From NCBI RefSeq assembly GCF_964213995.1, contig NC_135819.1:44454001-44518000 (forward strand): a DNA stretch of 64,000 nucleotides, in the 5' to 3' direction. The stretch is from Mustelus asterias. Its lineage: Eukaryota. Of the stretch, positions 964-60,844 are shown in pieces (position 1 is the stretch's first letter; every line of letters begins with the position of its first letter). The position numbers and the translations under genes are program-made. The notes under the pieces are model-generated. The model searched no databases. It had not been told where the DNA came from and saw nothing but the letters and a program-made list of their open reading frames with translations.

Positions 964-1323
964 CAGGAGTGGTGGTTGTAGAGGTGGTTTCAGGCAGATA
1001 GGTTGTTGTCCGTTGTGTTGTGGTTTGTGGCTCACAGCAAACACGGATTTGATAATCATAACAAAACTTCCTGTCCAGCGAAGCACTTTCGCTGTAAACA
1101 CAGACAAGTCCTGTGTCTTTGTCACAGGTCACATTGTCCGTCGATTCACTTATTGGCCTCTCCGGGTAATCAGCAAATTGACATTGGATTTTATTAATTG
1201 CATCAGAAGAGGAAGGGCACAGTTCATCGCGCATGGAATCCAATAACTCAGAATCGCCTGGGCTGTCCTCAGAAGGCGTCTGATCATTAATCCAAGGAGA
1301 CCATTCACCGTTACATTGCTCCT
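964..1323 (-). CDS. CysD (Mucin2_WxxW) domain exon plus short PTS tail, copy 1
   Basis: ttattttgcag|AGGAG...ACTCCTG|gtaaat; 360 nt; (E)EQCNGEWSPWINDQTPSEDSPGDSELLDSMRDELC...IQC...VTCDKDTGLVC...FCYDYQIRVCCEPQTTTQRTTTYLPETTSTTTTP. WxxW, GDxE, GLxC and CxDY..RVCC are CysD hallmarks. Confidence 0.92.
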
Positions 1324-1443
1324 CTGCAAAATAAGAAGTCTGGGCTTACTGAACCTGCCTTTAAACAAGTTAATTAACAAGAAATACAAAGATTAAAATG
1401 GCACAGCAACCTCTCTCAATTTGACGCCATATTCTTTCAACGT

Positions 1444-2940
1444 CATACAGCATAGAAACAGGCCCTTCAGCCCATCATGTCTATGTCAACCATCAAATAC
1501 CAATCAAAATCATCCCATTTACCAGTCCTTGGTCATTAGTCTACTGTGCATTCAAGATTTAAGTGCTTGTCCAGATGTTTCTTAAATGTTGCAAGGGTAT
1601 CTGCCTCCATCACCCTCTCGGGCAGCGCATTCCATATTTCCATCGCCCTCTGGGTGAATCATCCCCCTCTAAACCACTTACTCCTCACCTTAAACCTATG
1701 CCCTCTGGTCTTAGACTCCTCTGCCATAACTAAAAGATTCTGAAGATCTATCCTTGCTATGCCTCTCATTATTTTATATACCTCTATCAGATCCCCCTTC
1801 AGTCTCCACTGCTCCAGGGAAAACAAACCCAGCCTATCCAGTCTCTCCTCATAGCTGAAACTTTCCATCCCTGGCAACATCCTGGTGAATCTCCTCTGCG
1901 CCCTCTCCACTGCAATCACGTTCTTCGACATTGTGACGTCCAGAACTGCACACAATATTCCATCTGTGGCCTAACCAATGTTTTATAAAGTTGTACCAAC
2001 TCCTCCCTGCTCCGATAGTCTATGCGCCGGCTAATGAAGGCAAACATTCTGTATGCCTTCTTCACCATCTTATCTACCTGCGCTGCGACCTTCAGCGTTC
2101 TATGAATTTGTACATCAAAGTCCCTTTGTTCCTCAATACTCCCTAGGGACCTACCATTCATTGTGTATATTCCACCCTTATTGGACCTCCCAAAATGCAT
2201 CACCTCACACTTATCAGGATTAAATTCCATCTGCCATTGCTCTGCCCAATTTACCAGCTGATCTATATCAGTCTGTAGTCTTAGACTATCCTCCTCGCTA
2301 TCAACAACACCACCAATTTTCATGTCATCTGCAAACTTACTAATTATACCTATTACATTCCAATCCTGCACGGTGGCACAGTGGTTAGCACTGCTGCCTC
2401 ACAGCGCCAGGGACCCAGGTTCAATTCCGGCCTTGGGTCATTGTCTGTGCAGAGTCTGCATGTTCTCCCCGTGTCTGCTTGGGTTTCCTCCGGGTGCTCC
2501 AGTTTCCTTCCACAGTCCGAAAGAGGTGCTGGTTAGGTGCCTTGGCCATGCTAAATTCTCCCTCAGTGTACCCGAACAGGCGCCGGAGTGTGGCGACTAG
2601 GGGATATCCACAGTAACTTTGTAGTGTTTATTAGTGTCACAAGTAAGCCTACTTGTGACACTAACAAATAAATTTTAATAAACTTTATTCAAGTCATTAA
2701 TGTATATAACAAACATCAAGGGTCCCAGCACTGATCCCTGTGGTACACCACTGGTCACAGGTTTCCAATCACAAAAGCAACCCTCCTCCATCACTTTTGG
2801 CTCCTATTAACAAGTTAATTTTGGATCCAATTGGCAACTAACCTTGGATCCCATGGGCTCCAACCTTTTGGACCAACCTTCCCCGTGGGACCTCACTGAA
2901 GTCCATGTAAACCATATCAACTGTGCTACTTTCCTGAACA
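1444..2940 (-). mobile_element. Decayed CR1-type LINE, RT and 3' end, interrupted by a SINE (also ~13557-15053, 27729-29225, 41905-43401, 56078-58053)
   Basis: Frameshifted ORFs with SKFADD, LQTDIDQL..W, YKTLVRPQMEYCVQFW, QRRFTRMLPG, TRGH; VDMVYMDF near 2900-2925. Confidence 0.92.
2368..2686 (+). mobile_element. tRNA-derived V-SINE/HE1-related SINE nested in CR1 (also ~14481-14799, 28653-28971, 42829-43147, 57481-57799)
   Basis: A box ggtggcacagtggttag, B box ggttcaattcc, V-core gcatgttctccccgtgtctgc..gggtttcctccgggtgctcc. Confidence 0.85.
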
Positions 2941-3630
2941 GTTGCAGTCCATGTATCCATTCAGTCTCACATTGCAGTTAAGAAGAGTGGTTTTAGGATG
3001 TTGACCCCGTGATAGTGAAGGAATGGTGATATAGTTCCGAATTAGGGTGTGCAGTTGACATTCACTGGGAATAGTGCTTCAGATAACTTATTACATTCCA
3101 GCTCCACAATTTCATCGCAATGATGCAAAGACGACCAATCCAGTACAACACTGTTCATCTAAGCACTAAGGTGCTTTCCATGTTCATATTCCTACTTCAG
3201 AAATCAATGGGTTAATTTTCATTTACGTGCGAGAGAGAGAAAGAGCGGGGAAATGAAATTCCAGGGAAGAATTTGAGAGTCTATTGAGAGAATTCTTTTC
3301 CTGGTTTGAAACAGAAACCACCCCGATATTTGATAACTGCAGAATTGCTATTTAATAGGAATGTATAATACAATGCCCCCACGTTGCTTGGGCTGCACAT
3401 AGGATTTGTACCCTGTTCTGCTAAACATGATGCGAGGAACATAATTTCCTAAAATTGAACCAAAAATTTACAAAATAAGGAACAGCTTTGCAAACATTTT
3501 CAAAGCAAACCAATTTGAAGTAGAAAATTCAAAGCCACATTTATAAAATAATAAAACAGACCACATAAAGTTAGAATCGAATCCATTCTGAAATAGACTT
3601 AGCACAAGATATAAAATCGCTGCCAATTAC

Positions 3631-3690
3631 CGGTTGTGGTGCTGCTGGTGGGCACGGTTGAAGTTGTTGTCACAATCGGGGTTGTAGTTT
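3631..3690 (-). CDS. PTS micro-exon A, (E)TTTPIVTTTSTVPTSSTTT, copy 1
   Basis: tttttctcctctgcag|AAACT...ACAACCG|gtaatt; 60 nt, phase 1-1. Confidence 0.85.
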
Positions 3691-3911
3691 CTGCAGAGGA
3701 GAAAAATATTTCAACAGTGCACACTGAGGATTATAAACTTACCTTTCTATTGCATGTAGCTAAGCACAAAATTTCTAAAAATTACACCTATTCAATTGTA
3801 TACTCAGTACACTCAATAAACTTAGCGTGGAGAGAATAGAACTACTTAATAACCCACATTCATACACTAATTGCACAAGTGAACAGTTGATGGAATTGTC
3901 ACATTGATTTG

Positions 3912-5077: not shown

Positions 5078-5143
5078 CCACTTTGGGGGTGGGGGTGGTG
5101 GTGGATGCAGTTGAAGTCGTTGTTTCAATGAGTGATGTAGTTT
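5078..5143 (-). CDS. PTS micro-exon B, (E)TTSLIETTTSTASTTTPTPKV, copy 1
   Basis: tttttcacttctgtag|AAACT...AAAGTGG|gtaagt; 66 nt, phase 1-1. Confidence 0.85.
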
Positions 5144-5669: not shown

Positions 5670-5729
5670 CAGGCATGTAACTGGTGGTGGAGGTAGTTTT
5701 AATCATTGTCCACGTTAGTGGTACAGTTT
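5670..5729 (-). CDS. PTS micro-exon C, (E)TVPLTWTMIKTTSTTSYMP, copy 1
   Basis: tttttcttgcgacatag|AAACT...ATGCCTG|gtaagt; 60 nt, phase 1-1; weaker acceptor and more diverged peptide. Confidence 0.7.
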
Positions 5730-8922: not shown

Positions 8923-8982
8923 CAGGTATGTATTTGGTGGTGGATGTGGTTGTTGTCACTGTCTCAGGTTTTGATGTCGTTT
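8923..8982 (-). CDS. PTS micro-exon D, (E)TTSKPETVTTTTSTTKYIP, copy 1
   Basis: ttttctgcttcatag|AAACG...ATACCTG|gtaagc; 60 nt, phase 1-1. Confidence 0.85.
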
Positions 8983-9063: not shown

Positions 9064-9263
9064 NNNNNNNNNNNNNNNNNNNNNNNNNNNNNNNNNNNNN
9101 NNNNNNNNNNNNNNNNNNNNNNNNNNNNNNNNNNNNNNNNNNNNNNNNNNNNNNNNNNNNNNNNNNNNNNNNNNNNNNNNNNNNNNNNNNNNNNNNNNNN
9201 NNNNNNNNNNNNNNNNNNNNNNNNNNNNNNNNNNNNNNNNNNNNNNNNNNNNNNNNNNNNNNN
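9064..9263. other. Assembly gap (200 N)
   Basis: Run of N; flanks correspond to 21177 and 23435 in copy 2. Confidence 0.99.
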
Positions 9264-9729
9264 AACCGCTCTGAGTCTCAGATTCTGCTGCATGTCGCTA
9301 CGCACAGAAGTTGCAAAAAATGAATCCATTCACTTTTCTCTTTACTTAACAAAATTATTTTAGCAAATAGGCAATATAATTAATTAATAGCTCTTCAGCC
9401 AGGACATCAATTTTTCAAGGTAAGATTTGCTGGCGTTTGTCACATAGAATGGAGTTCCTGTCAATATTAGTTTTCAATGGACAGTGCAAACCTCTTAGAA
9501 TAGACAGATGCACATCGACTTGAATTCTCCACATTAACAGCGGCTCTGACTGTTTCACTTCCCAGAGTCCTCCAGCTCGAAGCTGACCTGACAATGTAGT
9601 GTCAGTGGAAGGTCCTAACATTGAAATATTGTCCTGGCAACCTGCACCATCATATCCAGATTCATACATAATGCCGTTTCTATTCAACACAGAGCGTGAA
9701 CTGCAGTCCCTGTCTCTCTTGCTAGACGA

Positions 9730-10495
9730 TGACCATCTCCCCCAAGAGACAGAATCTACCCATAGTCCCCCAACAATCAATGGCTTTACCATTGCTGAAT
9801 TTCCCACTATCAACATCCTGGGTGTTACCATTGACCAGAAACTGAACTGGACTGGCCATATAAATACTGTGGCTAGCAGAGCAGGTCAGAGGCTAGGAAT
9901 CCTTTTGTAAGTATCTCACTTTCTGACTCCCCAAAGCCTGTCTACCATCTACAACGGACAAGTCTGGAGAAAAATGAAATACTCTCCACTTGTCTGGATG
10001 AGTGCACCTCCAAAACATTCAAGAAGCCTGGCACCATCCAGGACAAAGTTGTCCACTTGACTGCTACCCCTTCAACACACATTTAATCCCTCTACCGCCG
10101 ATGAACAGTGGCAGCAGTGTGTACCATCTCCAAGATGCACTGCATGAACCCACGAAGGTTCCTTAGGCTGCACCTTTCAAACCCATGTTTTCAGCCATCT
10201 AGAAGGACAAGGGCAACAGATATCTGGGAACACCATCACCTGGAGGTTCCCCTCCAAGTCACTCACCATCCTGACTTGCAAATATATCGTCGTTCCTTGT
10301 TGTTGTTGTTGGGTTGTTGTTGGGTCAAAATCCTGGAATTCCCTCTCTAACAGCACTGTGGGAGTACCAACACCTCAGGAACTACAGCAGTTCAAGAAGG
10401 TGGCTCATCACCACGTTCTCAAGGGCAAGTAAGGATGGGCAATTAATGCTGGCCAGCCAGTGACACCCACACCCCACAAATGAATTTTTAAAAAA
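9730..10495 (+). mobile_element. Decayed L2/CR1-clade LINE 3' part (also ~23901-24666, 38078-38843, 52251-53016)
   Basis: INILGVTIDQKLNWTGHI...RAGQRLGIL RT thumb motif; tail ggatgggcaattaatgctggccagccag..aatgaatttttaaaaaa. Confidence 0.8.
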
Positions 10496-10855
10496 TTCTT
10501 CATCCTCCTCATTCGAAATGGATTTAAGACAGCTACTCTATGTTTGATGACACTTCCAAATAGACTTGTGAGACAGTTTATCATAGTTTAGTTACACAAC
10601 ATTGCCACAGTGGTCCATATAACATCAATCTAGCATGTAATTTGACTGCTTGACTCATTTAGCATCAGGTTGTTTCATCAGACTGGTAATTCACTCATCA
10701 TCTCAAAGATCAAAGGGGGTGAAGAGGGTGATATTCTGCTATCTGCAAGAGGAGGAGTCACACTGCAGGAAAACTACATTCCACAGACCAACCTACTGAG
10801 CACATACCACCAGACTCAGTTTTCTAGTGGGTATCAACAAAAAACCTGATAATAT

Positions 10856-11174
10856 GGGCTGTACGGTGGCACAGTGTTTAGCAATTCTGCCTCACAGCTC
10901 CAGTGACCCAGGTTCGATTCCCGGCTTGGGTCACTATCTGTGTGGAGTTTGCACATTCTCCCCGTGTCTGGGTGGGTTTTCTCCGAGTGTTCTGGTTTCC
11001 TCCCACACTCCAAAGATGTGTGGGTTAGGTTGATTGACCATGCGGAATTGTTCCTTAGGTGTCAGGGGGACTATTAGGATAAATACTTGGGGTTTTTGGG
11101 ATAGGGCCTGGGTGGGATTCTTGTCGGTGCAGGCTTGATGGACCGAATGGCCTCCTTCTATGATTCTTCTATGA
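10856..11174 (+). mobile_element. HE1-like V-SINE with CR1-type tail (also ~25027-25345, 39204-39522, 53377-53695)
   Basis: A box ggtggcacagtg(g/t)ttag, B box ggttcgattccc, V-core, tail gatggaccgaatggcctccttctatgattc. Confidence 0.85.
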
Positions 11175-11672
11175 AATCCTGTAGCTGAGCTCAGAACAGC
11201 GTGAAATAGTCAGAGAGATGGAATGAGATGGATTGGCTGTGACTTGCAGTCCATTATATTGCTTTACAACATCAGTATTGACAAAGTGTGACAAACAGGT
11301 TGTTCAGTGACAGCATGTTATATATATATATAAAAATAATTTAACATACTCTTCTCATTAGGAGCTGGGCACTCTACGGGATGGTAGTTAACGCTCATTG
11401 CAAAAAAGTGTGAACTTGGGAGCGAAAGTGCTGATTTGCTTCCCATTTGGGCAAACATGATGTCAGGAAGACGATTTGCTAAACAACTTCCAATAAATTA
11501 CAACTTAACGGTCAAGGATGCAATCACTTTCCAAGCAAACAATTAGAAAGGGAAATGTGTGTGTAAAAGTGAAAGCTGTATGTTGTTACCCTTCAATGAC
11601 AGGCCGCATGGAGCTAGTAAACAACCTATTGGAGACTAACTTAATGCAAGGTATGAAAGTGTTGTCCCTTAT

Positions 11673-11732
11673 TAGGTATGTAGCTGGTGGTAGCTGTAAT
11701 TGTAGCCCATGCCAGTGTTGGTAGCATTGTTT
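11673..11732 (-). pseudogene. Degenerate PTS micro-exon F, (E)TMLPTLAWATITATTSYIP, donor lost; copy 1
   Basis: Intact acceptor ttttcctgttctacag|AAAC; ends ATACCTA|ataagg where paralogues have ATACCTG|gtaag. Confidence 0.75.
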
Positions 11733-13076
11733 CTGTAGAACAGGAAAATCTTTCAACTTCTTACATTGCACACTGAAGCCCGTAGTATTCAGTTTAAAAA
11801 CATATATTCTTGGTCATGTGCGGCAGAATAGCATTTGTAAAAACGAAATCTATTCACTTCTATCTTAATCTACTCAATAAGATTATTTTGGAGGAAAGGA
11901 AAGAGAACCATTCAAAGCGAACAGCCTTTGCCATCAGAGCATCATTTCCACAAATATAAAGGGTTGTGGGAATTGCTATGTCAATTGGACCATTAATGGA
12001 GTTCCTGCAACAATTAGTTTTCAATGGACAGTGGAAAGCTTGGGCAGATTTATATTCAACTAGCTATCCAAAAAAAAAGAGTGGTTTTAAAACACTTGGA
12101 CAACAATCCTGGCGCTGATACTGGAGCAACTCCTCCCAAGGCTCCAACATGATCTTAACAGAGTATACAGGGTCAATGGAAGGGTCTACCATTTAAGCAT
12201 TTATGCTGTGGACCTGCACTACATTATTCAGTCACACGTCATGTTACTGCTACTATTCATTATGAATAGGGAGTAAACAGTTGATCATGTCGAGCTAGGC
12301 ACCAGTCACTTTCTTGATGTGAGTGTGTCCGCAGTATATTAGTTATAATGCAAAAGAAATTTTAGTCCAAAAAGAGGAGATGGTTCAGGTAAGAGTTAAA
12401 TAGCATGTGAAACAATGCCGGACAAATAGTTGAAAATACACTAATCATCTTATTGCTATCCACTTCTCTAATTGATGTATTAGCCCATGTATTTGATATG
12501 GACCAATGACTCGATTAAAATGACAGACATTGTCTTATGAATCAGTGCATCTTTTGGGCAGACTATTACTACAATAATTTCTAATTTGGATCTACTATTG
12601 CTTTATCAGCTTGATGCATTATCTGTGTCGGATGTAGGATTTTCACTCATATAGGGCAAGTTTGTTCAAAGTGTTTTTGTTCTAAAAGAGATGTGTATTT
12701 TATTTATTCATTCATGGGACATGGGCGTTGCTGGCTGGCCAGCATTTATTACCCATCCCTGACTGCCTGAGGACAATTGAGAGTCAACCACTTTGCTGTG
12801 GCTCTGGAGTCACATGTCGACCAGACCAGGTAAGGACGGCAGATGACCTTCCTTAAAGGACATGAATGAACCAGATGGATTTTTACGACAGTCGACAATG
12901 GTTTCGTGGTCATCGGTAGATTCTTAATTCCAGATATTTTTTATTGAATCCAAATTTCACCATCTGCCTTGGCGGGATTCGAACCCTGGTCCCCAGAACA
13001 TTCTAGCTGAGTTTCTGGATTGATAGTCTAGTGATAATAGGCCATCATCCCCTTTACACGCAAATATCATATTTAC

Positions 13077-13436
13077 CAGGAGTGGTGGTTGTAGAGGTGG
13101 TTTCAGGCAGATAGGTTGTTGTCCGTTGTGTTGTGGTTTGTGGCTCACAGCAAACACGGATTTGATAATCATAACAAAACTTCCTGTCCAGCGAAGCACT
13201 TTCGCTGTAAACACAGACAAGTCCTGTGTCTTTGTCACAGGTCACATTGTCCGTCGATTCACTTATTGGCCTCTCCGGGTAATCAGCAAATTGACATTGG
13301 ATTTTATTAATTGCATCAGAAGAGGAAGGGCACAGTTCATCGCGCATGGAATCCAATAACTCAGAATCGCCTGGGCTGTCCTCAGAAGGCGTCTGATCAT
13401 TAATCCAAGGAGACCATTCACCGTTACATTGCTCCT
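13077..13436 (-). CDS. CysD (WxxW) exon, copy 2
   Basis: Same sequence and splice sites as 964-1323. Confidence 0.92.
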
Positions 13437-15743
13437 CTGCAAAATAAGAAGTCTGGGCTTACTGAACCTGCCTTTAAACAAGTTAATTAACAAGAAATAC
13501 AAAGATTAAAATGGCACAGCAACCTCTCTCAATTTGACGCCATATTCTTTCAACGTCATACAGCATAGAAACAGGCCCTTCAGCCCATCATGTCTATGTC
13601 AACCATCAAATACCAATCAAAATCATCCCATTTACCAGTCCTTGGTCATTAGTCTACTGTGCATTCAAGATTTAAGTGCTTGTCCAGATGTTTCTTAAAT
13701 GTTGCAAGGGTATCTGCCTCCATCACCCTCTCGGGCAGCGCATTCCATATTTCCATCGCCCTCTGGGTGAATCATCCCCCTCTAAACCACTTACTCCTCA
13801 CCTTAAACCTATGCCCTCTGGTCTTAGACTCCTCTGCCATAACTAAAAGATTCTGAAGATCTATCCTTGCTATGCCTCTCATTATTTTATATACCTCTAT
13901 CAGATCCCCCTTCAGTCTCCACTGCTCCAGGGAAAACAAACCCAGCCTATCCAGTCTCTCCTCATAGCTGAAACTTTCCATCCCTGGCAACATCCTGGTG
14001 AATCTCCTCTGCGCCCTCTCCACTGCAATCACGTTCTTCGACATTGTGACGTCCAGAACTGCACACAATATTCCATCTGTGGCCTAACCAATGTTTTATA
14101 AAGTTGTACCAACTCCTCCCTGCTCCGATAGTCTATGCGCCGGCTAATGAAGGCAAACATTCTGTATGCCTTCTTCACCATCTTATCTACCTGCGCTGCG
14201 ACCTTCAGCGTTCTATGAATTTGTACATCAAAGTCCCTTTGTTCCTCAATACTCCCTAGGGACCTACCATTCATTGTGTATATTCCACCCTTATTGGACC
14301 TCCCAAAATGCATCACCTCACACTTATCAGGATTAAATTCCATCTGCCATTGCTCTGCCCAATTTACCAGCTGATCTATATCAGTCTGTAGTCTTAGACT
14401 ATCCTCCTCGCTATCAACAACACCACCAATTTTCATGTCATCTGCAAACTTACTAATTATACCTATTACATTCCAATCCTGCACGGTGGCACAGTGGTTA
14501 GCACTGCTGCCTCACAGCGCCAGGGACCCAGGTTCAATTCCGGCCTTGGGTCATTGTCTGTGCAGAGTCTGCATGTTCTCCCCGTGTCTGCTTGGGTTTC
14601 CTCCGGGTGCTCCAGTTTCCTTCCACAGTCCGAAAGAGGTGCTGGTTAGGTGCCTTGGCCATGCTAAATTCTCCCTCAGTGTACCCGAACAGGCGCCGGA
14701 GTGTGGCGACTAGGGGATATCCACAGTAACTTTGTAGTGTTTATTAGTGTCACAAGTAAGCCTACTTGTGACACTAACAAATAAATTTTAATAAACTTTA
14801 TTCAAGTCATTAATGTATATAACAAACATCAAGGGTCCCAGCACTGATCCCTGTGGTACACCACTGGTCACAGGTTTCCAATCACAAAAGCAACCCTCCT
14901 CCATCACTTTTGGCTCCTATTAACAAGTTAATTTTGGATCCAATTGGCAACTAACCTTGGATCCCATGGGCTCCAACCTTTTGGACCAACCTTCCCCGTG
15001 GGACCTCACTGAAGTCCATGTAAACCATATCAACTGTGCTACTTTCCTGAACAGTTGCAGTCCATGTATCCATTCAGTCTCACATTGCAGTTAAGAAGAG
15101 TGGTTTTAGGATGTTGACCCCGTGATAGTGAAGGAATGGTGATATAGTTCCGAATTAGGGTGTGCAGTTGACATTCACTGGGAATAGTGCTTCAGATAAC
15201 TTATTACATTCCAGCTCCACAATTTCATCGCAATGATGCAAAGACGACCAATCCAGTACAACACTGTTCATCTAAGCACTAAGGTGCTTTCCATGTTCAT
15301 ATTCCTACTTCAGAAATCAATGGGTTAATTTTCATTTACGTGCGAGAGAGAGAAAGAGCGGGGAAATGAAATTCCAGGGAAGAATTTGAGAGTCTATTGA
15401 GAGAATTCTTTTCCTGGTTTGAAACAGAAACCACCCCGATATTTGATAACTGCAGAATTGCTATTTAATAGGAATGTATAATACAATGCCCCCACGTTGC
15501 TTGGGCTGCACATAGGATTTGTACCCTGTTCTGCTAAACATGATGCGAGGAACATAATTTCCTAAAATTGAACCAAAAATTTACAAAATAAGGAACAGCT
15601 TTGCAAACATTTTCAAAGCAAACCAATTTGAAGTAGAAAATTCAAAGCCACATTTATAAAATAATAAAACAGACCACATAAAGTTAGAATCGAATCCATT
15701 CTGAAATAGACTTAGCACAAGATATAAAATCGCTGCCAATTAC

Positions 15744-47630: not shown

Positions 47631-47675
47631 CCACTCACCTGAAGAAGGGGCTTGCAGCTCCGAAAGCTTGTGTGG
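47631..47675 (+). ncRNA. Minimal hammerhead motif, copy 4
   Basis: As 7168-7212. Confidence 0.7.
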
Positions 47676-48421
47676 CTTTTGCTACCAAATAAACCTGTTG
47701 GACTTTAACCTGGTGTTGTTAAACTTACTGTGTTTACCCCAGTCCAACGCCGGCATCTCCACATCATAGACGGATCAGGACAGGAAGGATGGTATGTGGG
47801 GAGTGGCATGAGATGGGGGAATCATATGGGAGGAGGGGAGAGAACAGGAGGGGATAGCGTGAAAATAAAAAGGGATAGCATGGGAAGTTTGCGATTGGGA
47901 ACAAGGTGGCATGGATGCAGAAGACATAGAAAGAAGGGCTAGATTGGCTGAGAATGATAGGAATGAAAGAAATGGGATGGGTATGGATATGAGAGGGTTG
48001 GCCTGGGAAGGATGGAATGTGGCTGGTAATGGCACAGGAAAGTACTGTGGGAAATGGGAAAGGTACACCATGATAGGAGTCACATGAGAAGAATGGAAAG
48101 GTCTGGGATAACATACCAAGTGACAGTAAAAATTTCACCACAAAGGCTTTGTTGGTCCATATCATAATACGGTGGATGTTATAATAAATACATCCTTCTC
48201 ACTTGGGAGCTTCGCATGCAGTGGAGAAATATGAGAATGAAAGGGCATGGCAGTTGATGCATGTTAGAAATTATCTATTATTATCTATCATTCCACGAAC
48301 TGTTATGTCAGGAGTACAACTTCCTACAAGCTGCATTCAAATTTACAACTTAACGACCAGAGAAACAAATGTTTTCAAAGCAAACAATTAAAAGGATAAT
48401 GTGAGGTAGAAAATGAAAGTT

Positions 48422-49304
48422 GAGGAGGTGGGGAGGCTGCAGAAAGATTTAGACAGTTTAGGAGAGTGGTCCAAGAAGTGGCTGATGAAATTCAACGTGG
48501 GCAAGTGCGAGGTCGTGCACTTTGGAAAAAAGAATAGAGGCATGGACTATTTTCTAAACGGTGACAAAATTCATAATGCTAAAGTGCAAAGGGACTTGGG
48601 AGTCCTAGTCCAGGATTCTCTAAAGGTAAACTTGCAGGTTGAGTCCGTAATTAAGAAAGCAAATGTAATGTTGTCATTTATCTCAAGAGGCTTGGAATAC
48701 AAAAGCAGGGATGTACTTCTGAGGCTTTATAAAGCACTGGTTAGGCCCCATTTGGAGTACTGTGAGCAATTTTGGGCCCCACACCTCAGGAAGGACATAC
48801 TGGCACTGGAGCGGGTCCAGCGGAGATTCACACGGATGATCCCAGGAATGGTAGGCCTGACATACGATGAACGTCTGAGGATTGTGGGATTATATTCATT
48901 GGAGTTTAGGAGGTTGAGGGGAGATCTGGTAGAGACTTACAAGATAATGAAGGGCTTAGATAGGATGGACGTAGGGAAGTTGTTTCCATTAGCAGGGGAG
49001 ACTAGGACGCGGGGGCACAGCCTTAGAATAAAAGGGAGTCACTTTAGAACAGAGATGAGGAGAAATTTCTTCAGCCAGAGAGTGGTAGGTCTGTGGAATT
49101 CATTGCCACAGAGGGCTGTGGAGGCCGAGACGTTGAGCGTCTTCAAGACAGAAATTGATAAATTCTTGATTTCTCGAGGAATTAAGGGCTATGGGGAGAG
49201 AGCGGGTAAATGGAGTTGAAATCAACCATGATTGAGTGGTGGAGTGGACTCGATGGGCCGAATGGCCTTACTTCCGCTCCTATGTCTTATGGTCTTATCT
49301 TGTG
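48422..49304 (+). mobile_element. Young truncated CR1, copy 4
   Basis: ORF 48413-49219. Confidence 0.95.
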
Positions 49305-49385
49305 GTTATATTTGTTAATGAGTCAGTGATAGACCACACAGAGATGGACAGACTTGCAGCAGGGTGTACAACCATTGCTGCTTAC

Positions 49386-49445
49386 CAGGTATGTATTTGG
49401 TGGTGGATGTGGTTGTTGTCACTGTCTCAGGTTTTGATGTCGTTT
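49386..49445 (-). CDS. PTS micro-exon D, copy 4
   Basis: As 8923-8982. Confidence 0.85.
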
Positions 49446-51694
49446 CTATAAAGCAGAAAACATTTCAACCTGTGAAACTGCTCTGAGTCTCAGATTCTGC
49501 TGCATGTAGCTACGTACAGACATTGAAAAAATCAAATTGATTCCCTTCTTTGTTAGTTGATTTAAATAAAATTATTTTAGTTAAGAGGGGATACAACTAT
49601 TTAATAGCTCGTTCAGCCAGGAAGTTAATTATACATTATAGATTTATTGGAATTGTTACATAGAATGAAGTTCTGATAAATATTGGTTCGCAATGCACAG
49701 TGGAAACCTCTTACAATCAGCAAAAGCACAGACTTGAATTCTCCAGGCAGGCAGTGGCTCTGAATATTCTCAGGCCAATTATACTCAGTCTCACTTCCCA
49801 GGAACCTCCAGCTCTAACCAGGCCTGAGGATGCCGTGTCGGTCAAAGATCCTAATGCTCAAATATTGTTAACATTGATCATCTGTCAATTGCCATCAATT
49901 TTCTCATGTGCAAGGGGTATTCTATTGCCTACTAAATAGGGAGAGAGAGAGAGAGATAGAGGAATAAATCTGTGGGAGACTCACAGAGATGTAGGAGATC
50001 TATAGACTGGTAATGGTGGGGACTCCAACTACCCAAATATCAATTGGGATAAGGTTAGAGTAAGTAGTAAGGAAGGGGAGGAATTTCTGAAATGTGTTCA
50101 GGAGAACTTCCCTGATCAGCACATTCTCAACCCAACGAGAAAGGAGGCCATTGCCAGATGTGGTGCTGGGAAATGAGGTGGGCCAACTGGACCAAGTGTC
50201 TGTAGGGACATATTTCAGCAATAGTGATCATCATATCATAAGGTTTAGATTAGTGACGGAGATGAACAAGGAAAAATCTAAATACAGAATTCTAAATTGG
50301 AAGAGGTCTAATTTCTACACGATGAATTCTAACCAGGACATAATGGAACCAGAGCTTCCAGGAGAAGTTATAAGGGAACACGGGGTGACCTTTAAAGAAG
50401 AGATGCCTTTGGTACAGGCTTGGTACATTCCAACAACGGTGAAAGGTAAGGGAGCCAAAACAGGGCTCCCTGGATGAGAAGGGAAATAGAGATTGTGATG
50501 AAGCAAACATGTCACATGATACATGTCAGAAAAATTCATGTCAGTTGAGATGGGAGATGAAGAGGAAAAGAAGGGAGGCAAAGGGAGAGTATGGAAATAG
50601 AATGGCGGTCAACATAAAAAGAAACCCAAAACTGTTCTACCAGAATGTAATTACTCAGTGGCTAGTCAGAAATGTAGTTCGTCTTGTGTCTTGGGGACCA
50701 GTTAGCTCAGTTGTCTGGACAGATAGTTTGTGATGCAGAGCGGTGCCAACAGTGCAGCTCAGGTTATTCATGAAGGCCTGCTGTCTCAACCTTACCCCTC
50801 ACCTGAGGTGTGGAGGTCCTCAGGTTAAAATCACCACCAGGCAGTTCTCCCCCAAGGGGAGAGCAGCCTATGGTCATCTGGGACTATGGCGATTTTATGT
50901 CTAATAAGGTTCAAAGAGAATGATATCGACACTTTGAGGTGCAGGTGAAAGCCAGAATGCTCAATCAGTTATTTGTATTGGTGCTAATAAAGAAAGAGAA
51001 TCCTGACAAAATATTGGCAGAAACTGAGACAACGAAGACAATAGTTAGTGTAAGAATTGAGAGGGAGAAGGTTAAGGAAGGCTGCTATGGCTAAGGGTGA
51101 TGGTTTGGATGACTTGGATCCCAGGTTGCTAAAGAGAGTTGAAGGTTTGTTTTAATCTTAAACCTTCCTTAGATGGAGCTGGCTTAGGATTTGGAATCCA
51201 TAATCAGGGAAACATTCACAAACATTTGGAGAGGTTTGGGTTAGTTAAAGAAAGCCAGCGTGGAATTGTAAAAGGAAGATCTTGCCAGGCAAACTCATTG
51301 ATATTTTTTGCAAAAGTAGCAGAGGAGCTTGATGAAAGGAATATTGTGGATGTTGTCGATATAGATTTTAATCAAATGTTTTGCAAATTTTCACATAAAA
51401 GACTGATTAAAAAATTGAAGCCTATGGAATAGAAAGGTCAGTATCCAAACAGATAAAAAAAATTGGCTTAAGAACAGAAAGCAGCAAGCGGTGGTAGATG
51501 GTTCTCTTTTGGACTTGACAACAGTAGACAGTGGTGTTTGCCAGGTGTCAGTTCTGGGATCACTGTTTGTTTAACAATAAAGGAAAAATGAAAAGTTATA
51601 TTTGCTGCTGAGTCAGTGACAAACCACTCTGAGCGAGAAAACAATCACATTTGGAGAGAGACTGGGAGCAAGGTATAAAACTGTTGCTGCTTAC

Positions 51695-51754
51695 CAGGTA
51701 TGTATTTGGTGGTGGATGTGGTTGTCGTCACTATCTCAGGTTTTGGTGTCGTTT
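51695..51754 (-). CDS. PTS micro-exon E, copy 4
   Basis: As 23345-23404. Confidence 0.85.
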
Positions 51755-54193
51755 CTATAAAGCAGAAAACATTTCAACCTGTGAAACCGCTCTGAGTCTC
51801 AGATTCTGCTGCATGTCGCTACGCACAGAAGTTGCAAAAAATGAATCCATTCACTTTTCTCTTTACTTAACAAAATTATTTTAGCAAATAGGCAATATAA
51901 TTAATTAATAGCTCTTCAGCCAGGACATCAATTTTTCAAGGTAAGATTTGCTGGCGTTTGTCACATAGAATGGAGTTCCTGTCAATATTAGTTTTCAATG
52001 GACAGTGCAAACCTCTTAGAATAGACAGATGCACATCGACTTGAATTCTCCACATTAACAGCGGCTCTGACTGTTTCACTTCCCAGAGTCCTCCAGCTCG
52101 AAGCTGACCTGACAATGTAGTGTCAGTGGAAGGTCCTAACATTGAAATATTGTCCTGGCAACCTGCACCATCATATCCAGATTCATACATAATGCCGTTT
52201 CTATTCAACACAGAGCGTGAACTGCAGTCCCTGTCTCTCTTGCTAGACGATGACCATCTCCCCCAAGAGACAGAATCTACCCATAGTCCCCCAACAATCA
52301 ATGGCTTTACCATTGCTGAATTTCCCACTATCAACATCCTGGGTGTTACCATTGACCAGAAACTGAACTGGACTGGCCATATAAATACTGTGGCTAGCAG
52401 AGCAGGTCAGAGGCTAGGAATCCTTTTGTAAGTATCTCACTTTCTGACTCCCCAAAGCCTGTCTACCATCTACAACGGACAAGTCTGGAGAAAAATGAAA
52501 TACTCTCCACTTGTCTGGATGAGTGCACCTCCAAAACATTCAAGAAGCCTGGCACCATCCAGGACAAAGTTGTCCACTTGACTGCTACCCCTTCAACACA
52601 CATTTAATCCCTCTACCGCCGATGAACAGTGGCAGCAGTGTGTACCATCTCCAAGATGCACTGCATGAACCCACGAAGGTTCCTTAGGCAGCACCTTTCA
52701 AACCCATGTTTTCAGCCATCTAGAAGGACAAGGGCAACAGATATCTGGGAACACCATCACCTGGAGGTTCCCCTCCAAGTCACTCACCATCCTGACTTGC
52801 AAATATATCGTCGTTCCTTGTTGTTGTTGTTGGGTTGTTGTTGGGTCAAAATCCTGGAATTCCCTCTCTAACAGCACTGTGGGAGTACCAACACCTCAGG
52901 AACTACAGCAGTTCAAGAAGGTGGCTCATCACCACGTTCTCAAGGGCAAGTAAGGATGGGCAATTAATGCTGGCCAGCCAGTGACACCCACACCCCACAA
53001 ATGAATTTTTAAAAAATTCTTCATCCTCCTCATTCGAAATGGATTTAAGACAGCTACTCTATGTTTGATGACACTTCCAAATAGACTTGTGAGACAGTTT
53101 ATCATAGTTTAGTTACACAACATTGCCACAGTGGTCCATATAACATCAATCTAGCATGTAATTTGACTGCTTGACTCATTTAGCATCAGGTTGTTTCATC
53201 AGACTGGTAATTCACTCATCATCTCAAAGATCAAAGGGGGTGAAGAGGGTGATATTCTGCTATCTGCAAGAGGAGGAGTCACACTGCAGGAAAACTACAT
53301 TCCACAGACCAACCTACTGAGCACATACCACCAGACTCAGTTTTCTAGTGGGTATCAACAAAAAACCTGATAATATGGGCTGTATGGTGGCACAGTGGTT
53401 AGCAATTCTGCCTCACAGCTCCAGGGACCCGGGTTCGATTCCTGGCTTGGGTCACTATCTGTGTGGAGTTTGCACATTCTCCCCGTGTCTGGGTGGGTTT
53501 TCTCCGAGTGTTCTGGTTTCCTCCCACACTCCAAAGATGTGTGGGTTAGGTTGATTGACCATGCGGAATTGTTCCTTAGGTGTCAGGGGGACTATTAGGA
53601 TAAATACTTGGGGTTTTTGGGATAGGGCCTGGGTGGGATTCTTGTCGGTGCAGGCTTGATGGACCGAATGGCCTCCTTCTATGATTCTTCTATGAAATCC
53701 TGTAGCTGAGCTCAGAACAGCGTGAAATAGTCAGAGAGATGGAATGAGATGGATTGGCTGTGACTTGCAGTCCATTATATTGCTTTACAACATCAGTATT
53801 GACAAAGTGTGACAAACAGGTTGTTCATTGACAGCATGTTATATATATATATAAAAATAATTTAACATACTCTTCTCATTAGGAGCTGGGCACTCTACGG
53901 GATGGTAGTTAACGCTCATTGCAAAAAAGTGTGAACTTGGGAGCGAAAGTACTGATTTGCTTCCCATTTGGGCAAACATGATGTCAGGAAGACGATTTGC
54001 TAAACAACTTCCAATAAATTACAACTTAACTGTCTAGGATGCAATCACTTTCCAAGCAAACAATTAGAAAGGGAAATGTGTGTGTAAAAGTGAAAGCTGT
54101 ATGTTGTTACCCTTCAATGACAGGCCGCATGGAGCTAGTAAACAACCTATTGGAGACTAACTTAATGCAAGGTATGAAAGTGTTGTCCCTTAT

Positions 54194-54253
54194 TAGGTAC
54201 GTAGCTGGTGGTAGCTGTAATTGTAGCCCATGCCAGTGTTGGTAGCATTGTTT
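54194..54253 (-). pseudogene. Degenerate micro-exon F, copy 4
   Basis: As 11673-11732, ATA>GTA. Confidence 0.75.
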
Positions 54254-55597
54254 CTGTAGAACAGGAAAATCTTTCAACTTGTTACATTGCACACTGAAGC
54301 CCGTAGTATTCAGTTTAAAAACATATATTCTTGGTCATGTGCGGCAGAATAGCATTTGTAAAAACGAAATCTATTCACTTCTATCTTAATCTCTCAATAA
54401 GATTATTTTGGAGGAAAGGAAAGAGAACCATTCAAAGCGAACAGCCTTTGCCATCAGAGCATCATTTCCACAAATATAAAGGGTTGTGGGAATTGCTATG
54501 TCAATTGGACCATTAATGGAGTTCCTGCAACAATTAGTTTTCAATGGACAGTGGAAAGCTTGGGCAGATTTATATTGAACTAGCTATCCAAAAAAAAAAG
54601 AGTGGTTTTAAAACACTTGGACAACAATCCTGGCGCTGATACTGGAGCAACTCCTCCCAAGGCTCCAACATGATCTTAACAGAGTATACAGGGTCAATGG
54701 AAGGGTCTACCATTTAAGCATTTATGCTGTGGACCTGCACTACATTATTCAGTCACACGTCATGTTACTGCTACTATTCATTATGAATAGGGAGTAAACA
54801 GTTGATCATGTCGAGCTAGGCACCAGTCACTTTCTTGATGTGAGTGTGTCCGCAGTATATTAGTTATAATGCAAAAGAAATTTTAGTCCAAAAAGAGGAG
54901 ATGGTTCAGGTAAGAGTTAAATTGCATGTGAAACAATGCCGGACAAATAGTTGAAAATACACTAATCATCTTATTGCTATTCACTTCTCTAATTGATGTA
55001 TTAGCCCATGTATTTGATATGGACCAATGACTCGATTAAAATGACAGACATTGTCTTATGAATCAGTGCATCTTTTGGGCAGACTATTACTACAATAATT
55101 TCTAATTTGGATCTACTATTGCTTTATCAGCTTGATGCATTATCTGTGTCGGATGTAGGATTTTCACTCATATAGGGCAAGTTTGTTCAAAGTGTTTTTG
55201 TTCTAAAAGAGATGTGTATTTTATTTATTCATTCATGGGACATGGGCGTTGCTGGCTGGCCAGCATTTATTACCCATCCCTGACTGCCTGAGGACAATTG
55301 AGAGTCAACCACTTTGCTGTGGCTCTGGAGTCACATGTCAACCAGACCAGGTAAGGACGGCAGATGACCTTCCTTAAAGGACATGAATGAACCAGATGGA
55401 TTTTTACGACAGTCGACAATGGTTTCGTGGTCATCGGTAGATTCTTAATTCCAGATATTTTTTATTGAATCCAAATTTCACCATCTGCCTTGGCGGGATT
55501 CGAACCCTGGTCCCCAGAACATTCTAGCTGAGTTTCTGGATTGATAGTCTAGTGATAATAGGCCATCATCCCCTTTACACGCAAATATCATTTTTAC

Positions 55598-55957
55598 CAG
55601 GAGTGGTGGTTGTAGAGGTGGTTTCAGGCAGATAGGTTGTTGTCCGTTGTGTTGTGGTTTGTGGCTCACAGCAAACGCGGATTTGATAATCATAACAAAA
55701 CTTCCTGTCCAGCGAAGCACTTTCGCTGTAAACACAGACAAGTCCTGTGTCTTTGTCACAGGTCACATTGTCCGTCGATTCACTTATTGGCCTCTCCGGG
55801 TAATCAGCAAATTGACATTGGATTTTATTAATTGCATCAGAAGAGGAAGGGCACAGTTCATCGCGCATGGAATCCAATAACTCAGAATCGCCTGGGCTGT
55901 CCTCAGAAGGCGTCTGATCATTAATCCAAGGAGACCATTCACCGTTACATTGCTCCT
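55598..55957 (-). CDS. CysD (WxxW) exon, copy 5
   Basis: Same protein; donor gtaaaa instead of gtaaat. Confidence 0.9.
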
Positions 55958-56376
55958 CTGCAAAATAAGAAGTCTGGGCTTACTGAACCTGCCTTTAAAC
56001 AAGTTAATTAACAAGAAATACAAAGATTAAAATGGCACAGCAACCTCTCTCAATTTGACGCCATATTCTTTCAACGTCATACAGCATAGAAACAGGCCCT
56101 TCAGCCCATCATGTCTATGTCAACCATCAAATACCAATCAAAATCATCCCATTTACCAGTCCTTGGTCATTAGTCTACTGTGCATTCAAGATTTAAGTGC
56201 TTGTCCAGATGTTTCTTAAATGTTGCAAGGGTATCTGCCTCCATCACCCTCTCGGGCAGCGCATTCCATATTTCCATCGCCCTCTGGGTGAATCATCCCC
56301 CTCTAAACCACTTACTCCTCACCTTAAACCTATGCCCTCTGGTCTTAGACTCCTCTGCCATAACTAAAAGATTCTG

Positions 56377-56872
56377 GTCACCTCATTACAGGAAAGATGT
56401 TGAAGCCATTGAAAGGGTGCAGAGGAGATTTACAAGGATGTTGCCTGGATTGGGGGGCATGCCTTATGAGGATAGGTTGAGGGAGCTTGGTCTCTTCTCC
56501 CTGGAGAGACGAAGGATGAGAGGTGACCTGATAGAGGTTTACAAGATGTTGAGAGGTCTGGATAGGGTAGACTCTCAGAGGCTATTTCCAAGGGCTGAAA
56601 TGGTTGCTACGAGAGGACACAGGTTTAAGGTGCTGGGGGGTAGGTACAGAGGAGATGTCAGGGGTAAGTATTTCACTCAGAGGGTGGTGGGTGAGTGGAA
56701 TCGGCTGACGTCGGTGGTGGTGGAGGCAAACTCGTTGGGGTCTTTTAAGAGACTTCTGGATGAGTACATGGGATTTAATGGGATTGAGGGCTATAGATAG
56801 GCCTAGAGGTGGGGATGTGATCGGCGCAACTTGTGGGCCGAAGGGCCTGTTTGTGCTGTGCTGTGGCTTTCT
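56377..56872 (+). mobile_element. Copy-5-specific 496-bp 5'-truncated CR1 insertion
   Basis: Absent from copies 1-4 (attctg-aag-atctatcc); open frame WSPHYRKDVEAIERVQRRFTRMLPG...GIEGYR*, then 3' UTR ending tttcta. Confidence 0.95.
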
Positions 56873-58745
56873 ATCTATCCTTGCTATGCCTCTCATTATT
56901 TTATATACCTCTATCAGATCCCCCTTCAGTCTCCACTCCTCCAGGGAAAACAAACCCAGCCTATCCAGTCTCTCCTCATAGCTGAAACTTTCCATCCCTG
57001 GCAACATCCTGGTGAATCTCCACTGCAATCACGTTCTTCGACATTGTGACGTCCAGAACTGCACACAATATTCCATCTGTGGCCTAACCAATGTTTTATA
57101 AAGTTGTACCAACTCCTCCCTGCTCCGATAGTCTATGCGCCGGCTAATGAAGGCAAACATTCTGTATGCCTTCTTCACCATCTTATCTACCTGCGCTGCG
57201 ACCTTCAGCGTTCTATGAATTTGTACATCAAAGTCCCTTTGTTCCTCAATACTCCCTAGGGACCTACCATTCATTGTGTATATTCCACCCTTATTGGACC
57301 TCCCAAAATGCATCACCTCACACTTATCAGGATTAAATTCCATCTGCCATTGCTCTGCCCAATTTACCAGCTGATCTATATCAGTCTGTAGTCTTAGACT
57401 ATCCTCCTCGCTATCAACAACACCACCAATTTTCATGTCATCTGCAAACTTACTAATTATACCTATTACATTCCAATCCTGCACGGTGGCACAGTGGTTA
57501 GCACTGCTGCCTCACAGCGCCAGGGACCCAGGTTCAATTCCGGCCTTGGGTCATTGTCTGTGCAGAGTCTGCATGTTCTCCCCGTGTCTGCTTGGGTTTC
57601 CTCCGGGTGCTCCAGTTTCCTTCCACAGTCCGAAAGAGGTGCTGGTTAGGTGCCTTGGCCATGCTAAATTCTCCCTCAGTGTACCCGAACAGGCGCCGGA
57701 GTGTGGCGACTAGGGGATATCCACAGTAACTTTGTAGTGTTTATTAGTGTCACAAGTAAGCCTACTTGTGACACTAACAAATAAATTTTAATAAACTTTA
57801 TTCAAGTCATTAATGTATATAACAAACATCAAGGGTCCCAGCACTGATCCCTGTGGTACACCACTGGTCACAGGTTTCCAATCACAAAAGCAACCCTCCT
57901 CCATCACTTTTGGCTCCTATTAACAAGTTAATTTTGGATCCAATTGGCAACTAACCTTGGATCCCATGGGCTCCAACCTTTTGGACCAACCTTCCCTGTG
58001 GGACCTCACTGAAGTCCATGTAAACCATATCAACTGTGCTACTTTCCTGAACAGTTGCAGTCCATGTATCCATTCAGTCTCACATTGCAGTTAAGAAGAG
58101 TGGTTTTAGGATGTTGACCCCGTGATAGTGAAGGAATGGTGATATAGTTCCGAATTAGGGTGTGCAGTTGACATTCACTGGGAATAGTGCTTCAGATAAC
58201 TTATTACATTCCAGCTCCACAATTTCATCGCAATGATGCAAAGACGACCAATCCAGTACAACACTGTTCATCTAAGCACTAAGGTGCTTTCCATGTTCAT
58301 ATTCCTACTTCAGAAATCAATGGGTTAATTTTCATTTACGTGCGAGAGAGAGAGAAAGAGCGGGGAAATGAAATTCCAGGGAAGAATTTGAGAGTCTATT
58401 GAGAGAATTCTTTTCCTGGTTTGAAACAGAAACCACCCCGATATTTGATAACTGCAGAATTGCTATTTAATAGGAATGTATAATACAATGCCCCCACGTT
58501 GCTTGGGCTGCACATAGGATTTGTACCCTGTTCTGCTAAACATGATGCGAGGAACATAATTTCCTAAAATTGAACCAAAAATTTACAAAATAAGGAACAG
58601 CTTTGCAAACATTTTCAAAGCAAACCAATTTGAAGTAGAAAATTCAAAGCCACATTTATAAAATAATAAAACAGACCACATAAAGTTAGAATCGAATCCA
58701 TTCTGAAATAGACTTAGCACAAGATATAAAATCGCTGCCAATTAC

Positions 58746-58805
58746 CGGTTGTGGTGCTGCTGGTGGGCACGGTTGAAGTTGTTGTCACAATCGGCGTTGT
58801 AGTTT
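58746..58805 (-). CDS. PTS micro-exon A, copy 5
   Basis: As copy 4. Confidence 0.85.
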
Positions 58806-60192
58806 CTGCAGAGGAGAAAAATATTTCAACAGTGCACACTGAGGATTATAAACTTACCTTTCTATTGCATGTAGCTAAGCACAACATTTCTAAAAATTAC
58901 ACCTATTCAATTGTATACTCAGTACACTCAATAAACTTAGCGTGGAGAGAATAGAACTACTTAATAACCCACATTCATACACTAATTGCACAAGTGAACA
59001 GTTGATGGAATTGTCACATTGATTTGCTACAGTGCAGAAAGAGGCCATTCAGCCCATCGAGTCTGCGCCGACCACAATCCCACCCAGATCCTATTCCCAT
59101 AACCCGACATTTTTACCCTGCTAATCTCCTGGCACTAAGGGGCAATTGAGCATGGCCAATGCACCTAACCCGCACATCTTTGGACTGGAGGAGGAAACTG
59201 GAGCACCCAGAGGAAACCCACACACTATTTCAGACAAGCAGTCCTTGAACTTATGACACAACTTGTTCCTGAAAACTATGTCATGTCAAAACATCATAAG
59301 TGTGAACTGATTTTCACGTAGGTACACAATGATAAAAACAATCAACTGGTTCATGACCACATGTCAATGTTCATCCTTCAGGATTATTTGTGCATCCATG
59401 TATTGGTCTCAGGTAGTTGGAAACTTCTTGTCTGAAGCTATTTGTCAGCCAACAGGTCACTGCAGGAGATTTGACCACATGAATACACTCGCAGATGAGC
59501 CTCACATATTTACTGCGCTCTCACTGAAAGTGTCTGCCTAAACAAGACACACAAAACCAAGACAGACAGCACTGCCTCTCCCACTCTCCGTCCACCCATC
59601 GTCCTGTCCGTCTCTGGCCCCATGTCTCCGCACTGTGGGGTCACATTTTTCCAGGAAAATCGGACGGCGGTTTCACCGATTCCACAGACTTGTTCAGGTT
59701 CTGCGACTGAATAATATACAAGGCAGGTGGCATAGAGCATTGTATTGTCGAAGCCAGCATCGTAAAGCCGAAACAACATGCAGATTTATAAATATCCTAA
59801 GTGCCATTCATTTTAATTCGAACATCGAGGGATGCTTGTCGGGATATATTTGATAATATACACTTCTTGTTTGAAGCTTCGACACTGGGGACATATATCA
59901 GTTTATGCAAGTGGATGCACCCTGCAGGATTTTACCACAACTGGTACCAAATCCCTAACATACATCTTATTTCCACTAAACAATAAATTAGGAGCCCCAT
60001 CTCTTAAAAGCTGCGTAAACATTACCAGAAAACAAAAATAATACATTTTCAAACCAAATAATTAGAATGGAATATCTGTGGTAAAAAGGTGAAAGTTTTA
60101 TTTCATTACGTATTCAGTGACAGGCCACATGGAGTTAGAAAATAATCCATTTGTGGAAACCGTCTTGATGCAAGTTATTAAACGGCACTTAC

Positions 60193-60258
60193 CCACTTTG
60201 GGGGTGGGGGTGGTGGTGGATGCAGTTGAAGTCGTTGTTTCAATGAGTGATGTAGTTT
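60193..60258 (-). CDS. PTS micro-exon B, copy 5
   Basis: As 5078-5143. Confidence 0.85.
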
Positions 60259-60784
60259 CTACAGAAGTGAAAAATATTTCAAACCATTACACTGAGACTC
60301 ATCTGTACCAGATTTATATAGACTTACTTTTCTGCTGCAGGTAGATAAGCATAAAGTTCCTGAAGATTATAGCTATTCTCTTTATCTTAGCGTACCCAAT
60401 AAATGTACTTAGTGGAGACTGAATAGAACTATTTAATGAACCACATTCAATATTCTATTTAGTGTAAGAGTTTCCGGAATTGTTACACGGATTTGATTTC
60501 TGATTTGATTTATTCTTGTCACATGTATTAGCATACAGTGAAGAGTATTGTTTCTTCCGTGCTAGACAGACAAAGCATACCGTTCATAGAGTACATAGTA
60601 GAGAAGGAAAGGAGAGGGTGCTGAATGTAATGTTACAGTCATATGTAGAGTGTAGAAAAAGATCAGCTTAATGCAAGATAGGTCCATTCAAAAGTCTGAT
60701 GGCAGCAGGGAAGAAACATTCAAAAATAATTAATTTGTGGAGGTAGATTTGGTGCAATTTAATTCAAAAACTGCTGTCACTTAC

Positions 60785-60844
60785 CAGGCATGTAACTGGT
60801 GGTGGAGGTAGTTTTAATCATTGTCCACGTTAGTGGTACAGTTT
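60785..60844 (-). CDS. PTS micro-exon C, copy 5
   Basis: As 5670-5729. Confidence 0.7.

Follow-up and report, generated by a model that had tools for sequence, protein, structure and literature searches.

We describe a tandem array of exon-intron units inside a mucin gene of the shark Mustelus asterias, as seen in a window of 64,000 nt (assembly GCF_964213995.1, contig NC_135819.1, hereafter C19, positions 44454001–44518000; coordinates without a contig name refer to this window). The window falls in the middle of a single, intact gel-forming mucin gene, which is about 230 kb long and on the minus strand. With good confidence, we interpret this gene as a shark member of the Muc19 clade where a 14.17-kb block comprising five PTS exons (with a high content of proline, threonine and serine) and one CysD exon is present six or seven times, each copy being predicted to add 222 in-frame residues to the protein.

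The array fills the window with a period of 14,171–14,177 bp, and self-alignment within the window shows the copies to be 99.2–99.99% identical, in agreement with the 14-kb exon-intron macro-repeat proposed in a preliminary description of this DNA. For the 14.17-kb unit the identity is about 99.4–99.9%. On the minus strand each unit contains, in this order, exons E, D, C, B, A and CysD, with lengths of 60, 60, 60, 66, 60 and 360 nt; every exon has phase 1-1, and the donors read GTAAG, GTAAT or GTAAA. When joined, the six exons form 666 nt or 222 codons with no stop in all four complete units tested for frame (one of which extends beyond the window end), as had been stated before, while the two other frames of the joined exons contain 8 and 23 stops. 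The predicted product of a unit consists of about 102 residues of PTS and the 120 residues of the CysD exon; proline, threonine and serine account for 66% of the short-exon part. The CysD exon matches Pfam Mucin2_WxxW (E 1.5e-16), a search that the preliminary description had proposed, and contains 8 cysteines. Since all exons are multiples of three with phase 1-1, the gain, loss or skipping of whole cassettes or blocks leaves the reading frame intact. The short exons were located by an unbiased scan of both strands for PTS-rich open exons bounded by AG and GT, which detected five per unit, all on the minus strand; the plus strand of the window yielded none. A control scan of one unit likewise gave five on the minus and none on the plus strand, compared with a mean of 0.01 and a maximum of 1 in 100 local shuffles. 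At 60–66 nt these exons are too long for the label "micro-exon" used earlier, which is defined as ≤51 nt (PMC4317164; this and the other papers are cited from excerpts of their text).

Only 4.7% of a unit is coding (the earlier figure was under 5%), the introns within the unit being 0.5–3.8 kb long. Interspersed repeats, recognized by matches elsewhere in the 677 kb of fetched DNA, make up about 37–39% of the unit. They include the relic of a reverse transcriptase of long interspersed nuclear element (LINE) type, presumably CR1, which is present in every unit and matches RVT_1 weakly (E 5e-4, under the curated cut-off); introns and transposon relics were thus copied along with the exons, as previously claimed. 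A search of one unit against Rfam gave no matches. Beyond the earlier account, the window contains an assembly gap of 200 N, a sixth, dead cassette in each unit (F*, with AT in place of the GT donor), and an insertion of an interspersed repeat of about 493 bp in unit U2 alone. The features are listed below; short exons were placed by exon scan and frame join, CysD exons by frame join, units by self-alignment and F* by cassette alignment, unless another basis is given in brackets.

964..1323, minus strand: CysD exon left of the gap, 360 nt, phase 1-1; perhaps a copy of 13077-13436 created by the assembly (copy comparison, frame join)
3631..3690, minus strand: PTS exon A, 60 nt
5078..5143, minus strand: PTS exon B, 66 nt
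5670..5729, minus strand: PTS exon C, 60 nt
8923..8982, minus strand: PTS exon D, 60 nt
9064..9263, no strand: assembly gap, 200 N, with about 11.9 kb on each side identical save one indel (copy comparison)
9264..23434, minus strand: unit U5, 14.17 kb
11673..11732, minus strand: dead cassette F* of U5 (AG acceptor, open frame, donor AT not GT)
13077..13436, minus strand: CysD exon of U5
15744..15803, minus strand: PTS exon A of U5
17191..17256, minus strand: PTS exon B of U5
17783..17842, minus strand: PTS exon C of U5
21036..21095, minus strand: PTS exon D of U5
23345..23404, minus strand: PTS exon E of U5, 60 nt, different from D at 3/60 nt
23435..37611, minus strand: unit U4, 14.18 kb, the reference unit
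25844..25903, minus strand: dead cassette F* of U4
27249..27608, minus strand: CysD exon of U4, Mucin2_WxxW, 8 cysteines (Pfam match, frame join)
27855..29208, minus strand: intronic LINE-type reverse transcriptase relic harbouring a nested short repeat; every unit has a copy (repeat match, weak RVT_1)
29918..29977, minus strand: PTS exon A of U4
31365..31430, minus strand: PTS exon B of U4
31957..32016, minus strand: PTS exon C of U4
35212..35271, minus strand: PTS exon D of U4
37522..37581, minus strand: PTS exon E of U4
37612..51784, minus strand: unit U3, 14.17 kb
40021..40080, minus strand: dead cassette F* of U3
41425..41784, minus strand: CysD exon of U3
44094..44153, minus strand: PTS exon A of U3
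45541..45606, minus strand: PTS exon B of U3
46133..46192, minus strand: PTS exon C of U3
49386..49445, minus strand: PTS exon D of U3
51695..51754, minus strand: PTS exon E of U3
51785..64000, minus strand: unit U2, which runs 2.4 kb beyond the window
54193..54252, minus strand: dead cassette F* of U2
55598..55957, minus strand: CysD exon of U2
56377..56872, no strand: interspersed-repeat insertion of about 493 bp, U2 only (copy comparison, repeat match)
58746..58805, minus strand: PTS exon A of U2
60193..60258, minus strand: PTS exon B of U2
60785..60844, minus strand: PTS exon C of U2

Two smaller features vary between units. A C-rich tract (32159-32198) is a near-pure run of 40 nt in one unit and is interrupted in the others. 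One unit has an insertion of 63 bp (about C19:44525690-44525740) that includes an inverted copy of a sequence from the same unit, at a distance of about 650 bp, and which may be a scar of templated repair.

Both ends of the gene lie outside the window, where the preliminary description had advised looking for VWD-C8-TIL and cystine-knot exons, and were mapped with shark proteins found via CysD. Upstream, 46–93 kb past the right window edge, 28 N-terminal exons form a chain with an ATG start, a single open frame and AG/GT ends, whose last exon ends in phase 1. The chain encodes a leader (assigned by eye and homology) and (VWD-C8-TIL)x3 homologous to proteins P0002, P0004 and P0005. Downstream, 50–72 kb past the left edge, a CysD-VWD-C8-cystine-knot chain adds a fourth VWD; its terminal CysD exon is entered in phase 1, its cystine-knot exon ends in a stop codon, and proteins P0003 and P0006 have C-termini that match the last exons. 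Because the phase-1 exit upstream and the phase-1 entry downstream make one phase-consistent open chain, the units are internal to it, which bears out the earlier view of symmetric cassettes within one mucin gene. As VWD-C8-TIL, PTS and cystine-knot features are all present, the product is predicted to be a gel-forming mucin. The whole gene contains about 55 candidate short exons. A second array in it (C19:44.412-44.431 Mb) consists of 11 intact 60-nt exons of A type (A′) at 0.9–3-kb spacing and one further A′ copy with a TG acceptor, and several single cassettes occur besides.

The exons of the units are likely spliced in frame, judging from sequence and from public protein models. Model P0019, which matches the paralog g3 in the same gene cluster, joins the short exons of that gene and ends at a read-through donor inside its array. 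Among isoform models of orthologues of another paralog, g4, those from skate (13) and sawfish (14) differ from the longest form by whole PTS blocks of 13–17 or 37 residues, except for one sawfish form that differs by a single residue. Two skate isoform models of the window gene's own orthologue differ by one CysD module of 113 residues, and whale shark model P0004 matches one short exon of the window gene at 15/16 positions. Signs of constraint point both ways. In favour, exons D and E differ at 3/60 positions compared with 49/329 in their introns, and the amplified and older CysD differ at 17/356 exon and 34/403 intron positions, the changes being 8 silent and 8 replacement (p about 0.01 in a hand calculation with site counts taken from a paralogous CysD). 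Codon changes in the A′ array comprise 6 silent and 3 replacement. In g4, divergence is 3.1% in exons and 7.1% in introns, frameshifting indels number 0/6 and 83/90, respectively, and cassettes are intact in 64/67 comparisons, these being non-independent pairs. For the fixed-length exon set, which comprises intact sites with mixed, non-homologous flanks, codon counts were used and exon-versus-intron p-values discarded; from the cassette-class comparison we used the counts of intact and broken copies and the single-class rows.

Several points weigh against our interpretation. Splicing at the junctions is inferred from sequence and automated public models rather than from transcripts, and the public protein models are themselves automated predictions. 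Among the young 14-kb copies, 3 of 110 variable columns fall in live exons where about 5 are expected, numbers that leave the constraint test among them without power. The comparison of A with A′ gives 4/60 exon and 24/413 intron differences, i.e., no lower value in the exon; in the 57-nt class of g3 the exon value exceeds the intron value (0.053 vs. 0.033), and the silent-to-replacement ratios of the g3 short exons are near neutral (1:3, 3:9 and 2:6). Alternatively, the array might be real but mostly silent, i.e., a segmental duplication drifting neutrally in an intron-like region where the spliceosome skips most units. In line with this possibility, the young copies show no measurable constraint and dead cassettes were amplified too, the donor of F* being lost at 8/8 positions and one A′ copy having a TG acceptor. 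We nevertheless consider a silent array unlikely: five of the six cassettes per unit retain the AG, the GT[A] and the frame even though cassettes align with each other at only 65–82%, paralog g4 shows selection on frame, and public models of paralogs and orthologues join exons of this kind. The data suggest that selection bears less on particular residues than on composition, splice sites and frame.

The number of units is affected by the assembly. In the flanks examined, the array reaches about 20 kb beyond the left edge of the window and 24 kb beyond its right edge. As assembled, the gene has 10 CysD exons, of which seven are near-identical, an eighth stands at 92% and the remaining two, which are older, at 43% and 51%. 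Within 464 kb there is a single gap, the 200 N at 9064-9263, and it is inside the array. The approximately 11.9 kb to its left and right differ by one indel and no substitutions, compared with 12–72 substitutions for other pairs of units over the same columns, and the copy left of the gap lacks exon E. The simplest reading is that the gap flanks are an unmerged contig overlap. The unit adjoining this pair is likewise almost identical for the greater part of its length, which implies very young copies at this end of the array, and the gap could hide more; a true count of six, seven or more units is possible. The other copies are distinct, as shown by the private insertions of 493 and 63 bp. Exchange among copies was assessed in six units with the doubtful gap copy and the poly-C tract excluded: 39 informative sites give 741 pairs, 409 of which are incompatible in the four-gamete test, and nearby sites are more compatible than shuffled ones (0.423 vs. 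0.552, p = 0.0047). The pattern fits unequal crossing-over or gene conversion, with a possible contribution from assembler mis-tiling. Exchange between copies would reset their divergence, and amplification by unequal crossing-over is likely.

To the objections above the assembly adds that one copy may be a duplicate created by assembly and that the mosaic pattern could stem in part from mis-tiled reads or mixed haplotypes. Taken to the extreme, the array would be mostly an artefact, with one or two real units expanded by mis-assembly, and the identity of the gap-flanking copies over about 11.9 kb is what an unmerged overlap predicts. We regard this as very improbable because the other units differ by 12–72 substitutions and carry private insertions, the gap-free sequence alone holds five units, and orthologue models from two other species also show repeated near-identical CysD blocks. 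It is hardly conceivable that each unit is a small gene or pseudogene of its own, the outcome named in the preliminary description as contradicting it: all unit exons are internal with phase 1-1, no unit has its own start or stop, the genome-wide search with an N-terminal exon gives a single 5′ end for the locus, one C-terminal chain follows the array, and we found no supporting point.

By its predicted protein sequence, the window gene is a member of the Muc19 clade and not of Muc2/Muc5. Its third VWD region is 60–63% identical to Muc19 proteins and 45–51% to Muc2/Muc5, and a tree of the VWD region separates Muc19 and the shark cluster from Muc2/Muc5 with support of 100/100 (42 rows, 36 of them chosen by hand from about 120 matches, and 368 columns; midpoint root; Muc6 and VWF not included). 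The window gene groups with whale and basking shark (99/94), and sawshark, sevengill, sawfish and skate join this group of orthologues (99/97). The nearest proteins are all elasmobranch, which agrees with the shark origin assumed earlier. The position of the cluster is that of human MUC19, which is next to LRRK2 (PMC10557577): exons for the LRRK2 Roc, COR and kinase domains are found at C19:43.07-43.12 Mb, and the first cluster mucin follows about 50 kb on, at 43.167 Mb. The Roc search placed LRRK2; searches with the COR and CUE families did not place LRRK2 or TOLLIP. Mammalian Muc19 lacks a fourth VWD and CysD, the latter having been tied to Muc2/Muc5 (PMC4948705), whereas the shark gene has a fourth VWD and 10 CysD exons. 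The bichir Muc19 protein P0049 has four VWD as well, which makes the lack of the fourth VWD a mammalian trait rather than a defining one of the clade.

A Muc2/Muc5 identity was also considered. CysD within PTS and the fourth VWD fit it, but it is ruled out by the identity of 45–51%, by the 100/100 split, and by a gene on contig C9 that takes this place, grouping with Muc2 in the tree. That gene (C9:72956487-72972533) has a single giant PTS exon with an open frame of 5349 codons and one CysD at the start. The comparison with MUC2/MUC5AC/MUC5B drawn in the preliminary description therefore concerns the other clade, in which the shark gene has the single huge exon. As CysD is not limited to Muc2/Muc5, automated names of shark proteins ("mucin-2-like", "-5AC-like" and "-6-like" for members of the Muc19 clade) are misleading, and automated shark mucin models often end inside the array (e.g., P0019).

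The N-terminal-exon search revealed a cluster of six Muc19-clade genes beside LRRK2 (C19:43.17-44.61 Mb) and four other mucin starts on C9. Four of the six have short-exon PTS arrays (about 55, 82 and 99 candidate exons in three of them, and 64 or more in g6). In g2 and g5 the last CysD exon itself carries the PTS as a long tail, with frames of 819 and 1209 codons. In g3 (C19:44.117-44.198 Mb) a 2.8-kb unit of 57–60-nt exons is repeated about 25 times, with 8 near-identical CysD exons and a 20-kb higher-order duplication that includes CysD exons; the units of g4 measure 4.4–4.7 kb. Nearly all of the at least 64 candidate exons of g6 (C19:43.248-43.36 Mb) are 57 nt long and encode Gly-rich PTS, the array extending past the fetched DNA. 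Cassettes have been duplicated on several scales in the gene and the cluster, the 14-kb unit being one of them. Elsewhere, many VWD exons in near-regular steps of about 8–10 kb occur on C624, C573, C946 and C3:6.37-6.44 Mb, possibly in FCGBP-like genes with multi-exon repeats of their own. Orthologue models contain four internal CysD copies in basking shark and three to four in skate, 97–100% identical within and 55–86% between species, which points, at the level of protein models, to separate amplification or continued homogenization in each lineage. We tentatively extend this to a broader proposal, which may well prove wrong: that an unrecognized, expanded elasmobranch Muc19 cluster converged on or kept the Muc2/Muc5 layout and lengthens its mucins by two routes, short-exon blocks of up to 14 kb in four genes and growth inside the last CysD exon in two; that this shark, basking shark and thorny skate each amplified the same middle CysD block on their own; and that the block would serve as a polymorphic, alternatively spliced dial of cross-link density in mucus.

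Exons A–E, the dead F* and other cassettes align at 65–82% including their intron flanks, and since the flanks align too, all descend from one exon-plus-flank cassette. A PTS cassette outside the window (about C19:44544834-44545233) is split by an insertion of about 320 bp that has an A-rich end and is accompanied by a short target duplication. In the order of events we propose, single cassettes would have been duplicated first while their introns picked up repeats, and a block including the middle CysD exon would have been amplified recently and homogenized by exchange between copies. Each block would supply about 102 residues of O-glycosylatable PTS and one CysD. In MUC2 the CysD, with ten cysteines, acts as a non-covalent cross-link (PMC3195396); if it does so here, the length of the chain and its number of cross-links would be determined by copy number and by exon skipping. 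A further point against us is that cross-linking is proposed by analogy only, the shark CysD having 8 cysteines rather than the 10 of MUC2. The mechanism itself, unequal exchange of frame-safe units, is ordinary.

Many short repeat exons are a feature of mammalian Muc19 and of frog FIM-B.1, and dingo MUC19 isoform models, which differ by blocks of 78 and 90 residues, are consistent with such short-exon repeats. The consulted excerpts of PMC2180178 and PMC3056801 contain no exon-level account of Muc19 repeats. Human MUC19 shares the LRRK2 neighbour and differs in having its repeats, a 30-bp variable number tandem repeat, within an exon of about 12 kb (PMC10557577). In the tree the shark cluster groups with mammal, coelacanth and bichir Muc19, its tandem gene expansion resembles that of stickleback spiggins, and some spiggins also have a fourth VWD (PMC4948705, PMC2180178); different are the 10 CysD exons and the six paralogs, compared with three in Callorhinchus (PMC4948705). 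Human MUC2, MUC5AC and MUC5B share (VWD-C8-TIL)x3, alternating PTS and CysD, VWD and a cystine knot but have the PTS/CysD region in one exon, MUC6 likewise having a single central exon (PMC9712336); this design is found in the C9 gene of the shark. Mucins have been found in shark skin mucus, in an account that, as excerpted, gives no gene structure (PMC10707392). A search of full-text literature, with most subscription papers and supplements outside its scope, returned no description of a shark Muc19 cluster or of the 14-kb unit. Both ingredients, exon-per-repeat PTS and multi-exon repeat units, are known; their combination as a 14-kb PTS and CysD block, in a shark Muc19 cluster that is expanded and contains both designs, appears to be undescribed.

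The precedent of chicken MUC2 named in the preliminary description holds in that multi-exon PTS was already known, but nearer parallels exist. In chicken MUC2, also gel-forming, PTS and CysD are spread over 32–45 exons, and the flanking genomic DNA contains repeated elements (PMC3549977); it belongs to the Muc2 clade and has a 69-residue repeat, and in the excerpted account the region is unresolved in that assembly and no genomic unit is defined. Closer in exon design is chicken Muc13, where PTS repeats of 20 residues, as here, occupy one exon each (PMC1552070); it is a membrane SEA mucin without CysD, and the excerpts describe no higher-order multi-exon block. Closer in genomic design are LPA (the KIV-2 unit of 5.6 kb with 2 exons in up to 40 copies), NEB (10.5 kb) and DMBT1 (4 kb) (PMC11201333), and CR1 (54.7 kb in 3 copies; PMC4079513), in which, as is proposed for the shark gene, tandem in-frame units of exons plus introns inside one gene set protein length. 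Those units encode folded domains and have been shown to be polymorphic, whereas the shark unit, seen in one assembly, is 4.7% coding and encodes mostly disordered PTS and one CysD. For chicken Muc13, Lang et al. (2006) proposed that exon-per-repeat is an ancestral design, with length controlled by recombination and splicing (PMC1552070), and the occurrence of both designs among sister paralogs in this shark makes that proposal testable.

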